Shown: positions 9,239 through 64,000 of the stretch, one piece after another
How the letters are laid out: each line of letters starts with the position of its first letter
Position numbering within the stretch: position 1 is the stretch's first letter
IMG/VR virus record: IMGVR_UViG_3300020583_000010
Location: 32,001-96,000 of that record
Strand: one strand, 5' to 3'
Length of the DNA stretch: 64,000 nucleotides
DNA from: a virus
Notes under the pieces: generated by a model
The model's database searches: none
The model's input: only the letters and a program-made list of their open reading frames with translations
What the model was told of the DNA's origin: nothing
Program-made: the position numbers and the translations under genes

Positions 9239-9496
9239 TTAGTCTTCTAGGCCTGATATAAGCTCATCAGTACCATCCTCATACTGAATACAGGTTTCCC
9301 AAAGTTCCCCGTTGATAGCATAGCGGTGTAGGACTCGAAAGATACCCTGTCCTTTTTTCCTCCGTGCTCTAGCACAGTCAGAGCATGCTAACTCCATCAA
9401 GTTTCCATTTGTTACTACTGGCTTATCTCCGTCAGCCACTACTTTTAGAAAAAGCCTATTAGGAGAATTAGGGCATCGCACATCGAACTCAGGCAT
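9239..9496 (-). CDS. Small Cys/His (putative zinc-binding) protein
   Basis: VRCP...CSDC...HRY; overlaps upstream gene. Confidence 0.65.
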   Translation of the reverse strand: MPEFDVRCPNSPNRLFLKVVADGDKPVVTNGNLMELACSDCARARRKKGQGIFRVLHRYAINGELWETCIQYEDGTDELISGLED

Positions 9497-40039: not shown

Positions 40040-42039
40040 TTACCAGTTTCTGTCTTATGAATATCTTTACAAGATCCCCAGCGTTCCCAGGTATGCCAGT
40101 CTGCCACCATATCTGGCCATCCCTGAACTGGGAAGACCACCGCTGGTTCTAGGAGTGAACACACTGTATCTAGATCTACACTCTTGTGCACATAGAATTC
40201 TAGAGCATCATGTATATTCATTACTAGATGAATTTTATCCGCCAGACCTGCTGCTTTTATAGCTTTAGTGGCCCGGACCATGGCAATCTTAGGTACATCT
40301 CCCGTAGCTGATCCTTGAATCACAGTATTGAAGGCCATTCTATCAGCCTTACCCTGGGCATAATGACTCTTATCCTGATAATCCCAAATAGTCATCTTGC
40401 GCCCGAATTTTGTTATGGAATATCCATTCTTACGGCCTAGTTGCATACACTTATCAATATATCTCTTGATATTTGGATAGGCCGCATACCATCTATCTTG
40501 AAGATCCTGCGCTTCTTCTTCAGAAGTTCCCATACTCTCAGCGAGTGCCTTAATTCCCTGCTGATATACTGTTGCAAAGTTTAGAGTCTTACCTCTTTGC
40601 CTTTTAACAGGATCTACCTGATCTGCTGGTATCTGGAACATAAGCATGGCACTTTTAACATGGACATCCTCACCGTTAGCAAATGCCTCCAAAAGAGCAG
40701 TCTCATTAGCCTCGCCAGCAATCGCTCTCAACTCTGCTTGCCCGTAGTCAAACCCGACAGCGTAGTAATCCTCAGGACATACTACGGCATCACGAAAACA
40801 GAACTCTAGAAAGGCGTTGCCAGACTCATACCGTGTCATTTTCTTACCGGCTAAAGGTCCTTCTTTATATGAGATATTGCCCCCTGGTAATTGCTGATAA
40901 CCAGGTTTAGATACTGAGAATCTTCCAGAGATTACAAATACTTGATGATGACTAGGATGTGTTAGACCCTCATGCTCAATATCATAACTGAAGTCTCTCT
41001 CATACTTATCGAGATATGATCCTATTAGTTTATTAACTTCTCGCCACTCTAGCAAACTTCGTATTACTGGGTGTTTCTGAGCTAGGCCTTCTAGAGCAAC
41101 CGTGTCTGTTGACATTTTGGGCTCAGTAGAGTCTCTAGTACCCTTAGTGTACCTAGTAGTAGAAAATCCCAGTCTGTTATATAAAAGATTTTGTACTTGA
41201 GCAGGTGAGTTAAGGTTTACAGTGACTGGTTCTCCTAGCATCTCTGAGAAAGTATCCTGAATATTGGATAGTTGTATATCTTTGAATACTTTAGCATGCT
41301 CACTTACATCTCTCATGAACTTCCAGTCGAAGTAAACTCCAAATCTTTCCATTTCATACACTACATAGAGGACTTGCATCTCTAACTTGTATATGAAATG
41401 ATCTTTCACAATAGGGTAGTGTTTATTATGAAGCGCAAGAGCCCACAGAGCATCTTCACAAGCGTAGTCTATTACTTTAGAATTCAACTCAAGCACGTTG
41501 AACCGTATAATACTCTTCTTACTGTCAGGAAGATCTGGAAAGAGTTCATGAATCTCGGTCATTTGATGTCCGAATATTTCAAATACTAATTTCTTAAGTG
41601 CATTACTCTTATAGGCAGAGACTATAGCAGCTTCTATCAGAGTACATGAAAATATTGGGAAAGGTTCTTTTCCTACTATTTCTATACCAAGATACTCTAT
41701 AAGCCAGGGAACTAGGAAACTTAACTCGAACTTTGCATTGTGAGCTATTACTAAACCTGACTTAAGAAGTGGCCATATAATCTCAGCTACTTCTTTATTG
41801 TCTAAGTTCTCTTCAGCATAGTCATGCCGTAACGGTATATATCTAGCCCAATCAGTTGAATTAGCTACACTTATTCCTACTACAAAGCCTTCTTGCGGAT
41901 GAGTGGCCGCGTCTTTCCTGTCAGGACCATCATACCCAGTCTCAATGTCAAGGCCCACAGGTGTTCCTTCAGCTAGGAACTTGTCCACTATGGACTTTAG
42001 CTCTTCTAGTGTGTGCACTAAGCCGTAATTACGAAGCAC
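40021..42039 (-). CDS. polA: DNA polymerase family A with 3'-5' exonuclease
   Basis: DIET exo I; motif A DYGQAELR; motif B RQRGKTLNFATVY; motif C IHDAL. Confidence 0.96.
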   Translation of the reverse strand: MLRNYGLVHTLEELKSIVDKFLAEGTPVGLDIETGYDGPDRKDAATHPQEGFVVGISVANSTDWARYIPLRHDYAEENLDNKEVAEIIWPLLKSGLVIAHNAKFELSFLVPWLIEYLGIEIVGKEPFPIFSCTLIEAAIVSAYKSNALKKLVFEIFGHQMTEIHELFPDLPDSKKSIIRFNVLELNSKVIDYACEDALWALALHNKHYPIVKDHFIYKLEMQVLYVVYEMERFGVYFDWKFMRDVSEHAKVFKDIQLSNIQDTFSEMLGEPVTVNLNSPAQVQNLLYNRLGFSTTRYTKGTRDSTEPKMSTDTVALEGLAQKHPVIRSLLEWREVNKLIGSYLDKYERDFSYDIEHEGLTHPSHHQVFVISGRFSVSKPGYQQLPGGNISYKEGPLAGKKMTRYESGNAFLEFCFRDAVVCPEDYYAVGFDYGQAELRAIAGEANETALLEAFANGEDVHVKSAMLMFQIPADQVDPVKRQRGKTLNFATVYQQGIKALAESMGTSEEEAQDLQDRWYAAYPNIKRYIDKCMQLGRKNGYSITKFGRKMTIWDYQDKSHYAQGKADRMAFNTVIQGSATGDVPKIAMVRATKAIKAAGLADKIHLVMNIHDALEFYVHKSVDLDTVCSLLEPAVVFPVQGWPDMVADWHTWERWGSCKDIHKTETGKWELVA

Positions 42040-60472: not shown

Positions 60473-60501
60473 ATACTACCATGTTTTTCGCATAAAAACA
60501 A
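60473..60501 (-). promoter_or_regulatory. Sigma70-type promoter
   Basis: TTGTTT-17-TAGTAT with TG. Confidence 0.55.
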
Positions 60502-60652
60502 GCCCTAATACCTAAAAATCATCATAAAATACCCCAAAAATGACTAATATGGAGTATTTCTAGAAACATCAGTTCGGCTATTATAGAACAAATTCCTATT
60601 TAAATTCGGAGTGGAAGACAAAGTAATAGTCTTAGTGTCCTATAATCGAACA

Positions 60653-61194
60653 TTAAAGGTTATTATATTCAACATCTGTGATATGCACTAGCCTATCCGA
60701 TCCGTACGCCCCGGTCTGCCCGCTTTCAAATCTGACATGATACTTATTCGAACTGCTATTCCACGCCAGAACGGAACAAACAACTCCCGGCAGTCCCGCA
60801 TTTTCATCATAGGCAAAAGCATGCTTGACTCTTACAACGTCTCCTACCTTAAACTTGTCTTCTGCCTGCGGGTTCACCAGATCTTTCGGCATAATCGAGA
60901 CCGGCTTGACCTCTTGGTCCTTGCTCAGTGCCTCTTTGCTGTGCCTTTTAAGCTCATCCGCTGAGTCCATCCATACAACCCAGTCCAACTTATCGTTATT
61001 GCTCCTGTCGAACACACCATACCAGCCAGCCTCGAACGGCTCCGGGAATTCCTCAACCTCGGCTCCGAGCGGCAGGGTAACCCATGTTCCGGAGTAGTCG
61101 TACCATCCTTTGCACCCCCCGGCAACCGCACGTGTATAACACCATCAACCCCTTGTGTAAGATCAACTTCAAAGCTCACTCTATATCTAGTCAT
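60653..61194 (-). CDS. Hypothetical protein with C-terminal KOW/SH3-like domain, apparently split by a -1 frameshift near 61110-61120
   Basis: MTRYRVSFEV... continues naturally in the -1 frame as KGWYDYSGTW...FKVGDVVRVK. Confidence 0.55.
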
Positions 61195-61200
61195 ACTGCC

Positions 61201-61229
61201 AACCTACCATACACACCTCTATCTGTCAA
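61201..61229 (-). promoter_or_regulatory. Sigma70-type promoter, leaderless transcript
   Basis: TTGACA-17-TAGGTT; ATG 7 nt downstream. Confidence 0.7.
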
Positions 61230-61666
61230 CCCACAATAAGTGCAGGTCAGCGGCCTTGTTTCAAGGGAATCGAAGATCAATTTGAAAATCACTCCGGCGG
61301 CTAAAACCGCCCCATATCAGCACCCTGCGTCACGCGACTAGCCCCGCCCCCGCCATGCGACGCAGCACACGCATCTACGCACACGCATATCAGTCATCGA
61401 ATCTCAAAGCAATGCACTGATAGGCATCCCAAGAGCCGGCAGAGTATTGACATCCACATATCAGTCATCGATCACATAGCCGGCAGACCTTTTACATATG
61501 AAATCTGAGAGCCTAGCAGACCCTCAGGTAGTATCCTTATACCAGAGCCCTGTGTTAGGCTCTCTACGATCAACACAGAAGAACAGGAACAGGCATCTCA
61601 GCACAGTGCGTTGATGTCAGTGATGTGTATTGATGTATGTACACTGTTGTGGTTAGGAGACTTGAC

Positions 61667-61724
61667 TACTGTGTGTAGTGTTGAACTGGTTACTGTGTGT
61701 AGTGTTGAACTGGCTACTGTGTAG
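61667..61724 (+). repeat. 24-bp tandem repeat, 2 copies plus partial
   Basis: TACTGTGTGTAGTGTTGAACTGG(T/C). Confidence 0.85.
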
Positions 61725-62195
61725 GCTGCCGTGTTTCATCCGGCCTGTGGTATGCCGTGTGCCGTACAGGTCTGCTCATCCCCTGTGTGTGTGGTGAACG
61801 ACTGTATACCCTGGTACAGCCAGAGGTACATGCTGTGTGTAGTATGGATCAGTGTGCTGTGGCAGTGCTCTGTGTGACAGCGTGTCGGTCTGGTACGGTG
61901 TGCCCTGTATAGGATCTGTCTGCGTGTCAGCCGTGTGCCGTATCCTGATATCAGTGTGGCTGTATGCCGGTACTGCCGGCGCATGGCTGCTCATCCGGTT
62001 CGGATATTCGCGTGTCTTGATACAGGATGGATACTGCTGTGCGGGGTCGCTTATACCACGTCTGGGCATGCTTGGAGTACCTTGGTACCTGAGTATGCCG
62101 CATGGCGGGGATGTATGCATGAGGTCTCGGGTATAGTCGCAGGCGGAGCTCATCCGTGTTTCTCGAAATGGATTTATATTCATAGTGCCCGGGGG

Positions 62196-62223
62196 TTGCG
62201 CCGCCGTGGGGCAGTAGTAACGT
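62196..62223 (+). promoter_or_regulatory. Putative rightward early promoter
   Basis: TTGCGC-16-TAACGT. Confidence 0.5.
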
Positions 62224-62229
62224 AGTGAG

Positions 62230-62702
62230 TGAAGCAAGAGGCATTCGAACCGACAGGGAACCACCGGCTCAGCCGGACAGGCCAAGGATCGAATCCCCCG
62301 CTTAGGTCACCGGAAGCCTTGTCAACCGGGAAGCATCATCCTAAAGGGGTGATGGAACCGCGCGGGTCAGCATCGAACGAAGCGCCGCACGGCACGCAGT
62401 GAAGGCAGGGATCAGCAGGGTTCCGGGGTGAAACTCCCTGGTGCGTTAGGAGCGACCGGCTTAGACGCCAACGGCTCTGGGGACGTGAGACGGTCTGCCT
62501 TGTATTACAGCCACGAACGGGAACGTTGATCGGTCCGACTCCGATCCGTGGCGCGGGGCGATCGCAGTGAAGGACGCGGGTAAGAAAAGTGATGCCGCCG
62601 GGAGGCCTTGAAGCATCAGCCCAGCGGCCTTCAATGCGAAGCTCAAGGGACGCTGTGAAGGCGAGGCGGTTGGGTCCGTCCGCCGAAGCGGCGTCCCGCA
62701 TC
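62230..62702 (+). ncRNA. Candidate large structured ncRNA upstream of tRNAs
   Basis: No credible ORF; many nested helices, T-loop-like motifs, repeated CGCWGTGAAGG. Confidence 0.6.
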
Positions 62703-62705
62703 AAA

Positions 62706-62778
62706 GTCCCTATGGTGCAGCGGCCTAGCACGCAAGACTTTCAATCTTGTGACGTCGGTTCGAATCCGACTAGGGGTG
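62706..62778 (+). tRNA. tRNA-Glu(TTC)
   Basis: GTCCCTA/TAGGGGT acceptor, CAAGA-CTTTCAA-TCTTG, GTCGG-TTCGAAT-CCGAC. Confidence 0.92.
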
Positions 62779-62856
62779 CGGGACTGGCAACACGACCATC
62801 GATGCGCGGACCGTGAGAACGGATTTTGCGAACTTCACAGGCGTTCAGTCCTTTTT

Positions 62857-62927
62857 GCGGCTGTAACTCAATGGCAGAGTATCTGACTTCCAATCAGACT
62901 ATGCGGGTTCGATTCCCGTCAGCCACT
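62857..62927 (+). tRNA. tRNA-Gly(TCC)
   Basis: TCTGA-CTTCCAA-TCAGA, GCGGG-TTCGATT-CCCGT. Confidence 0.92.
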
Positions 62928-62968
62928 CGTAGGAAGTGCCGCACAACTCACCTAGGGAGTCAGAAACT

Positions 62969-63181
62969 ATGAGCGAGTTCTACATGTCCGGCCGTTCCAA
63001 CCGTGAAGAGTACGGCATGCGCGGAACAGATTGGGTGGAAGAGTACACGCGGATGATCAACGGGACCGAGTACGAGTTCTCGCGTGTCACGTGGGGAGAC
63101 GGCGCTGTCACCGTTCGCGCGTGGATCGTGGGCGGTTCGGCCTACTACCCGATCCATCAGTGGGGACGTCAGGTCTCCTAG
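62969..63181 (+). CDS. Small early hypothetical protein
   Basis: SD GGGAG; high-GC codon pattern. Confidence 0.7.
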   Translation: MSEFYMSGRSNREEYGMRGTDWVEEYTRMINGTEYEFSRVTWGDGAVTVRAWIVGGSAYYPIHQWGRQVS

Positions 63182-63270
63182 CAGCAAGCCTCTAGGGTCA
63201 AGCTTCACAGCAGCGCCTAGAGGCACTTCAAAGGCTCCAATCAGGTGCCTTGAAACAGAAAGGCAATACC

Positions 63271-63399
63271 ATGCGGCGTTATCAGGGCGAGTCGGTTCAG
63301 GTGGTCAACGAGACCACCTATCGCGGCGTCCGCGTTCTCTGCGTCATGTTCAGCGACGGCATGGCCGAGTGGGTTCCCGCCAGCGAGGTGACCAAGTGA
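63271..63399 (+). CDS. Small early hypothetical protein (42 aa)
   Basis: SD GAAAGG; MRRYQGESVQVV...EWVPASEVTK. Confidence 0.65.
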   Translation: MRRYQGESVQVVNETTYRGVRVLCVMFSDGMAEWVPASEVTK

Positions 63400-63584
63400 C
63401 CGGCCTTACCGTAGCCGATCGCTGCGACGCCTGTAGCGCGCAAGCGCTGGTCGCTTTCAGCCGTAGCGCCGGACAGGGCCGTCTCGACCTCTGCGGCCAT
63501 CACGCGCGTCGGTTCGGCGCCAAAATGGCCGAACAGGGATTCACCATCGCCGAGGATCACAGAGAGAGCGTGGTGGCGCGATGA
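63396..63584 (+). CDS. Small zinc-binding protein (DUF7455-like)
   Basis: LTVADRCDACSAQA...LCGHH; GTGA overlap. Confidence 0.75.
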   Translation: MTGLTVADRCDACSAQALVAFSRSAGQGRLDLCGHHARRFGAKMAEQGFTIAEDHRESVVAR

Positions 63585-63736
63585 CGCGCGTCATCGCCAT
63601 AGGCGTGGCGTGCGCCGTATTCGCCTCTCTCGCCATCGCTGGCATCCTGGCCCTGTCCGTGAGTCAGGCTGACCGGCCTTCCAATCCGTGTGCAGTCATC
63701 GGCATGAGTCACTGCGGCTCTGTCGGCAACAAGTAG
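63581..63736 (+). CDS. Small membrane/secreted protein
   Basis: ATGA overlap; hydrophobic N-terminus. Confidence 0.6.
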   Translation: MTRVIAIGVACAVFASLAIAGILALSVSQADRPSNPCAVIGMSHCGSVGNK

Positions 63737-63748
63737 GGAGTCTGTTTC

Positions 63749-63916
63749 ATGAACCGTTTCCAGAAAGTCCGCATGGGCGCGGGTTGGGCCGTGTGGGACC
63801 GTGATACCAACCATTTCGTCGCTGATGCGTCCTACGGCAACGAGTACATGGCCGACGCCAAGGTAGAAGTCCTGAACCGCAAGCACGAAGAGCAGAGCAT
63901 GAACAGCCATGCATAA
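63749..63916 (+). CDS. Small early hypothetical protein
   Basis: SD GGGAG; WAVWD...A..LN pattern. Confidence 0.65.
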   Translation: MNRFQKVRMGAGWAVWDRDTNHFVADASYGNEYMADAKVEVLNRKHEEQSMNSHA

Positions 63917-64000
63917 GGCTCATAACCTCTACCACACCGTCAAGGACGCACGTACGTACCGTTCCCGCGTCCGCGCCTACAGAGGTGATGACACGAGCGT

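Follow-up and report, generated by a model that had tools for sequence, protein, structure and literature searches.

What does a phage place between a promoter-like site and a pair of tRNA genes when no protein gene is evident there? The question is raised by positions 62230–62705 of a 64,000-nucleotide (nt) stretch of viral DNA, hereafter the window, which comprises bases 32001–96000 of the 126,028-base-pair (bp) IMG/VR virus record IMGVR_UViG_3300020583_000010 (estimated completeness 94%). A first-pass annotation had seen here a single modular RNA of about 470 nt, located behind a promoter and before tRNA genes. The location was confirmed (tRNA-Glu starts at 62706 and tRNA-Gly at 62857) and the stretch is non-coding. 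It is not, however, a new large non-coding RNA (ncRNA) class, and the 470-nt claim has to be scaled down: relatives share only about 62257–62360, leaders range from 264 to 546 nt, and in three of three relatives no tRNA lies directly behind. What is conserved is a compact element made of a 29-nt core and an adjoining hairpin, P2, and this element is uncatalogued, being outside Rfam and not found in cultured phages. The reading we prefer, and consider plausible rather than probable, is that of a promoter-proximal leader RNA element which a host component would recognise while the RNA is still nascent, and which would in this way set the fate of the early transcript.

Four distinct sequences were compared, namely the window (W) and one sequence from each of three families of relatives, A (L002/L007), B (L003/L015) and C (L004/L016), all of them on contigs of uncultured soil phages. 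Relative A was reached through a 70-amino-acid (aa) protein encoded behind the stretch, which is 67% identical on an IMG/VR contig, and the leader of A has a 30-mer in common with W. B and C were reached by pattern scans; B is a complete genome of 44,341 bp with terminal repeats, whose terminase is 48% identical to those of Streptomyces phages, and C is a complete genome of 66,281 bp. Pairwise comparison confines the likeness among W and its relatives to about 62257–62360, outside which the leaders of the relatives cannot be aligned with W. The conserved features, in window coordinates, are as follows.

62257–62283, + strand: GGAACCA, a small hairpin P1 (62264–62268 with 62272–62276; helix CCGGC at 62264 with GCCGG at 62272, confirmed by position check) and ACAGGCC, from the W–B alignment
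62305–62333, + strand: core of 29 nt, GGTCACCGGAAGCC-NN-GTCAACCGGGAAG, from the four-sequence alignment
62334–62354, + strand: hairpin P2, stem 62334–62341 with 62347–62354 and loop TAAAG, from covariation in W, A and C (helix strands CATCATCC at 62334 and GGGGTGATG at 62346, confirmed by position check)
62356–62360, + strand: the word GAACC just 3' of P2, present as GAACC in W, B and C and as CAACC in A, with no pairing partner established

The core is identical at 27 of its 29 columns in all four sequences and adjoins P2 in each of them, P2 being a stem of 7–8 bp with a (G/U)AAAG loop. Across W, A and C, all 23 cells of P2 are paired and seven of the eight pairs have changed on both sides, a result that none of 500 shuffles equalled, while slid-register controls were 30–46% paired. 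The changes are compensatory, not synonymous. Model R1 misaligns P2 of B owing to an insertion of about 50 nt; as judged from sequence reading and a fold, the closing stem GATGACC/GGTCATC and GAAAG turn of this P2 are kept around that insertion. P2 is selected as RNA. Moreover, because the core has kept its letters while the stem abutting it has changed by compensation, selection on letters operates here alongside selection on pairing. The covariation among homologues on which the first-pass annotation had hung its proposal thus holds for hairpin 62334–62354, within a likeness limited to the short conserved interval. The helix GACAGGG (62252)/CCTTGTC (62317) on the + strand, which the first-pass annotation had listed, is present in the window on position check and, on sequence reading, is not kept in the relatives.

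Upstream of the core, W and B both keep GGAACCA and CAGGCC around a P1 stem that differs between them (CCGGC/GCCGG in W versus TCGCA/TGCGA in B). RNAfold pairs the 5' strand of P1 in B with a second, more downstream TGCGA, and its partner is uncertain. C has GGGAAACCCA before a larger hairpin at the place of P1, and A is without the P1 part, having only a hairpin directly before the core.

Invariant unpaired letters between variable helices are the usual look of an aptamer. They could belong to a sensor in the 5' untranslated region (UTR), either a riboswitch-like aptamer or a protein site and possibly a small pseudoknot, controlling the translation or stability of the first genes. The core can indeed be drawn as a hairpin of 4–7 bp with an 8-nt loop, in which a loop CCGG pairs with a second CCGG; this pairs 39 of 44 cells. 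The drawing is consistent with the sequences but has no statistical support, as it is backed by one compensatory pair (A-U in three sequences, U-A in B) and 225 of 500 shuffles are as good. The distance from the element to the first start codon also runs from about 200 to more than 650 nt, with two tRNAs intervening in W, and Rfam contains no matching riboswitch. A relaxed core pattern run over 185,579 species genomes gave four matches, all in unrelated flanks, so that the core stands in a similar context in no bacterial genome of that set, which is unusual for a metabolite sensor. We consider such a sensor rather unlikely.

The two halves of the core, GGTCACCGGAAGC and TGTCAACCGGGAAGC, resemble each other, and the reverse strand of the core has TTGACA in W, B and C. 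With a 1.2-kilobase (kb) repeat-rich non-coding region just upstream in W, this could suggest a DNA-level site (an operator, a roadblock or a replication signal) bound as a duplex at two similar half-sites. Yet the adjoining P2 covaries as RNA, no -10 box lies behind the antisense TTGACA, and the core is invariant across phages without a detected shared regulator. It is present as one copy per genome (G000, G001 and G002). Its distance from the -10 box varies as well, being 81 nt in W, 44 in A, 111 in B and 66 in C; given this variable spacing and a core that adjoins P2 in all four sequences, an RNA unit fits better than a promoter-fixed operator. A role at the DNA level therefore seems very unlikely to us.

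The promoter itself was less clear than the first-pass annotation had implied.

62196–62223, + strand: promoter-like TTGCGC at 62196, a 16-nt spacer and TAACGT at 62218, with GGGGG in front; GGGGGTTG aligns with relative A

This site lines up with consensus TTGACA promoters of the relatives (TTGACA-16-TAGGTT as read in A, TTGACA-17-GATAGT in B and TTGACA-16-TATCTT in C). A consensus promoter scan of 60500–64000 nevertheless returned no promoter-like site, TTGCGC-16-TAACGT failing it.

The element has the same orientation in all four sequences and each time heads a run of small open reading frames (ORFs); the units behind it are short and their ORFs are without known function. By tblastx, the 70-aa protein is the only protein shared by W and A, and C gave no match to A or B on the retrieved parts; several downstream proteins are common to A and B. 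In these comparisons the element has travelled as a compact module between soil actinophages that are otherwise unrelated. Searches for further carriers found none; the contigs that encode the proteins P0002 and P0003 are likely to be two more. A strict core pattern in viral contigs returned five stretches, which make up the three families, and the relaxed pattern in metagenome contigs gave eight matches, comprising the three known families and five unrelated ones (L014 is eukaryote-like). A pattern of the first half of the core hit four further stretches whose likeness is limited to the pattern (13–19 bits), the second half plus loop hit three further stretches at no more than 12 bits, and a covariance-model search added no member. 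Among 50,697 cultured phage records the core is absent: the W leader gives only chance matches of 18–19 nt, the W locus matches 16 records in their tRNA parts only, and the leaders of B and C find nothing alike. In Microbacterium phage Magritte, whose portal protein marks it as the closest relative in culture, the best covariance-model score is 11 bits. An alignment of the 70-aa protein recovered A alone again from the viral contigs, where the 120-aa protein upstream has no relatives.

How much of the stretch as a whole is structured RNA? The helix, promoter-like and repeat motifs listed by the first-pass annotation are all in place (17 of 17), and its description of a helix-dense stretch holds for the + strand. 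The + strand of 62225–62705 folds at -211.5 kcal/mol (z -3.05, with none of 100 dinucleotide shuffles as good), against z -0.46 and 30 of 100 shuffles as good for the - strand. This excess stability is located in two 3' hairpins, 62556–62642 and 62645–62699; the conserved 5' part is ordinary in stability (z -0.6 and -0.30 in two fold tests). The absence of a coding gene was likewise borne out. Of the four ORFs of 57–131 aa that overlap the stretch, none matches a family in Pfam or PHROG at E≤0.1, and no frame across the core has an in-transcript start codon before the core in all four sequences, the window included.

The first-pass annotation did not recognise the stretch as GOLLD or ROOL, and it matches neither these nor any other Rfam family. 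Rfam 15 at gathering score gave four matches in the whole window, all tRNA. At E≤10, the region 61400–63000 gave the two tRNAs and three chance-level matches, of which the sole one inside the stretch is Scr1601 on the - strand (13.5 bits against a cut-off of 100). The same threshold on 62225–62705 alone gave no match, with GOLLD, ROOL, HEARO, tmRNA, riboswitches and small ribozymes included, and the loci of the relatives gave none at E≤1. ARAGORN called no tRNA besides the two flanking ones, and no tRNA-clan match appeared in 62225–62705 at E≤10. A likeness of 62424–62470 to RNase P RNA, seen by eye, was dropped, since Rfam matched nothing in the region and the type A RNase P model RF00010 had no match at E≤10 anywhere in the 126-kb record, where controls were positive in 11 of 14 genomes.

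The remaining 340 nt (62366–62705) carry stable hairpins that have no counterpart in A, B or C, and would be specific to this lineage. They can be divided as follows.

62395–62505, + strand: domain D1, closed by AAGGCAG/CTGCCTT, with the first copy of a repeated 11-mer at its start; z +0.70, no stabler than shuffles (helix strands AAGGCAGG at 62402 and TCTGCCTT at 62494, confirmed by position check)
62510–62552, + strand: Y-shaped element, in which a 6-bp stem encloses two small hairpins; -20.8 kcal/mol, z -1.93, equalled by 9 of 200 shuffles; no tRNA call from ARAGORN or Rfam
62558–62642, + strand: domain D2, a long hairpin with the second 11-mer copy as its 5' strand; 62556–62642 folds at -37.4 kcal/mol, z -3.58, equalled by none of 200 shuffles
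62647–62697, + strand: domain D3, a very stable hairpin with the third 11-mer copy, 8 nt before tRNA-Glu; 62645–62699 folds at -38.2 kcal/mol, z -5.72, equalled by none of 200 shuffles (helix strands GGGACGCTG at 62647 and CGGCGTCCC at 62689, confirmed by position check)

The 11-mer CGCWGTGAAGG, already noticed in the first pass, occurs three times in the 64-kb window, always within the stretch (62395, 62563 and 62651), where 0.03 occurrences are expected by chance and none of 100 shuffles reaches three. A fourth copy at genome position 101392 lies inside an ORF and was set aside as chance. The 3' strand of D2 includes a 12-nt arm (62627–62638) that is complementary to all three copies (62395–62405, 62563–62573 and 62651–62661), and with three 11-mers facing one arm, mutually exclusive pairings are possible. 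The alternative hairpin of 11-mer and arm, which an attenuator would use, reaches -16.3 kcal/mol, compared with the -37.4 and -38.2 kcal/mol of D2 and D3. No T run follows D3, and no terminator-like site was found on the + strand in a scan of 60500–64000. The repeat families had also suggested that the 5' domain was duplicated into the 3' part; this was rejected, the best local alignment scoring 22.0 against a shuffled mean of 22.2.

Part of D1 has been met elsewhere. A relative of 62412–62493 (82 nt) with 10 differences lies on a 549-nt contig of the soil DNA run X1, which is possibly the source sample, and the loose ends of that contig are distantly alike by look; a 19-mer from D1 used as a pattern gave no matches. 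On sequence likeness, then, the 3' part has at least one further relative. These findings bear on the view that the 340 nt are functionless, whether as spacer, as decayed tRNA-like debris or as hairpins that merely stabilise or insulate the tRNA precursor. Such a view is consistent with their absence from A, B and C, with a D1 no stabler than shuffles and with an island that is a mosaic insertion carrying its own tRNA pair. It accords poorly with three 11-mers all complementary to one arm, with the stability of D2 and D3 (z -3.6 and -5.7), with the related 82-nt piece on another soil contig and with the lack of any tRNA-like score at E≤10, and we judge it improbable.

The same 3' hairpins, very stable as they are, could instead form the body of a stand-alone, trans-acting ncRNA (a decoy, a scaffold or an anti-defence RNA), in which a leader of about 476 nt would be freed by RNase P and the core would bind or mimic a host molecule. 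The tRNA directly behind the W leader offers a natural 3' end, the core is invariant across unrelated phages, and 62412–62493 has its relative on another soil contig. Against this stand the lack of a tRNA behind the leader in A, B and C and of a terminator-like site behind the element in B or C, for which reason the elements of B and C are the plain 5' part of an mRNA. The 3' 340 nt, moreover, are found in none of A, B and C, and no known phage ncRNA family matches. We regard a free-standing RNA of this kind as unlikely.

We return to the preferred reading, an element read on the nascent transcript. Here an early transcription unit running rightward would have 62230–62705 as its untranslated leader, and the element, some 60–100 nt near the 5' end of the leader, would consist of a variable hairpin, the 29-nt core, the abutting P2 and the word GAACC. 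The host would supply its reader, most likely the RNA polymerase at work on the transcript or else a factor for elongation, processing or RNA binding; since no phage protein is common to the carriers, a partner encoded by the host is the simplest assumption. RNase P cleaves tRNAs at their 5' end and would cut the leader at tRNA-Glu, so that processing of this tRNA would leave the mRNA behind it separated from the entire leader. In W, an element severed in this way could have no effect in cis on the translation or stability of that mRNA, and co-transcriptional or trans action is consequently the most likely. The effect would be to set the fate of the early transcript, in the manner of the nut and put sites of lambdoid phages. 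The leaders are poor in U (11–16%); those of A and B are strongly folded (z -5.6 and -5.4), and in each of W, A and B the interval from the element to the first gene contains at least two very stable hairpins.

Put-type RNA of phage HK022 suppresses termination and pausing via the zinc-binding domain of the RNA polymerase beta-prime subunit. Put RNAs are described as about 70 nt long, with two stem-loops, just downstream of early promoters and requiring no phage protein (PMC9378689). HK022 putL and putR resemble our element in being cis-encoded RNAs of tens of nucleotides near early promoters, with no dedicated phage protein evident (PMC9378689). The core lies 44–111 nt behind the -10 box in all four sequences, thus just downstream of an early promoter. 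Of a two-stem-loop form, P2 is proven, and an upstream hairpin is present in all four sequences but is not homologous throughout. Unlike in put, a 29-nt invariant segment, unpaired or of unknown fold, parts the two hairpins; the hosts are high-GC actinobacteria; and no canonical terminator lies downstream. Any action on polymerase by the window element is proposed by analogy.

The letters of the core are, to our knowledge, unlike those of boxA. The likeness to lambda nut (boxA plus the boxB hairpin) lies in a conserved linear box at the start of early operons, behind which comes a short hairpin whose five-base loop is rich in purines (PMC2800207, PMC2724277). The box is the conserved part in both, as a host-factor site would predict, while here it is three times longer and abuts the hairpin. 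The four operons have no protein in common (tblastx and ORF lists), and hence no shared counterpart of the operon-encoded small arginine-rich protein of lambda N/nut; a small basic first ORF (34 aa) is found in C only. We accordingly take put and nut as the nearest models for a mode of action and claim no membership in either. GOLLD and ROOL are alike in being phage-borne, several hundred nucleotides long, adjacent to tRNA genes and of unknown function; here, by contrast, Rfam finds no match, conservation is limited to about one fifth of the stretch, and no tRNA adjoins it in the relatives.

A bolder version would make the core and P2 a new class of protein-independent, polymerase-binding leader RNA, one that, in the manner of put, would counter termination or pausing of actinobacterial RNA polymerase, exchanged as a module among unrelated soil actinophages and securing early transcription through long structured leaders. 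We put this forward as a speculative proposal with a small chance of being right.

Several observations weigh against an element of this kind acting on the nascent transcript. The promoter of W is poor by the consensus scan, and the leader of C is not unusually structured (z +0.36). No stem with a T-run terminator occurs on the transcribed strand in the leaders of W, B and C, leaving no demonstrated stop for read-through. The comparison comprises just four sequences in which the core is invariant, and so gives no sign of whether or how the core folds, its hairpin or pseudoknot drawing being no better than shuffles. The likeness to put and nut is one of location and, in part only, of form. As to expression, the soil RNA library X3 contains an exact 151-nt contig covering 62478–62628 and four more contigs downstream to 63561. 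These are a weak sign of transcription, as the depth is about 2–6 and DNA carry-over is possible. X3 has no contig on 61500–62477, an absence that carries no evidential weight.

The source of the window is an uncultured actinophage of 126 kb. The portal proteins of this phage and of Microbacterium phage Magritte are 42% identical; the 335 records that match the former are mostly actinobacteria phages. Genes run leftward to the left of 61015 and rightward to the right of 62969. Between these arms lie, in order, a 1.2-kb repeat-rich stretch, the candidate stretch 62230–62705, tRNA-Glu(UUC) and tRNA-Gly(UCC). The features behind the candidate stretch are listed below.

62706–62779, + strand: tRNA-Glu(UUC), called by ARAGORN; Rfam 62.7 bits
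62857–62928, + strand: tRNA-Gly(UCC), called by ARAGORN; Rfam 65.8 bits
62969–63181, + strand: first protein gene of the unit, 70 aa, without a Pfam or PHROG family; 67% identity in relative A
63396–63581: third gene in the unit, encoding a DUF7455 protein (Pfam E 2.3e-15; phrog_1720)

A search with the 70-aa protein found itself and three relatives at 67–75% identity. The G+C content is 58–61% from about window position 62000 to 68000, against 40–50% over most of the genome; this high-G+C island covers about 62000–64000 of the window and continues to about genome position 100000. The record has 25 tRNA genes in total, and the tRNA-Glu(UUC) and tRNA-Gly(UCC) of the island are second copies, 57% and 53% identical to their counterparts in a low-GC tRNA cluster. 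Because these second copies have diverged and are matched best by tRNAs from large Streptomyces phages, the island looks like a mosaic module acquired from a high-GC phage.

The repeat-rich stretch at window 61015–62195 (1.2 kb, with the divergent arms on either side) has no convincing ORFs and is dense in direct repeats, among them a 24-nt tandem unit at 61667–61714 with a third copy at 61831, and words of 13–15 nt present two or three times. Its role may be that of an origin or of a regulatory region. About 4.5 kb past the end of the window, genome 100470–100815 holds a second TTGACA promoter, a leader of about 200 nt without the conserved core, and an arginine-rich first ORF of 32 aa. Among the relatives, C has, 3' of its first small ORF, a sequence that resembles a tRNA and includes a GGTTCGATTCC arm (L016, approximately 9330–9410), for which ARAGORN made no call and Rfam gave no match at E≤1. 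The early operon of B (G002, reverse strand, 40243–40926) includes an ORF of 227 aa that consists for the most part of five-residue repeats and by eye resembles a pentapeptide-repeat protein.

Early transcription control in actinophages is poorly understood, and we know of no nut- or put-like RNA established for high-GC hosts. A core kept letter for letter across phages with almost no genes in common, beside a hairpin kept in shape only, is a compact candidate for a host-factor site on nascent phage RNA. Were the element not to modulate polymerase, it would still be an uncatalogued phage RNA motif. If it does, RNA-only antitermination would extend beyond the lambdoid phages, and the element could serve as a portable expression element for Streptomyces-type hosts.
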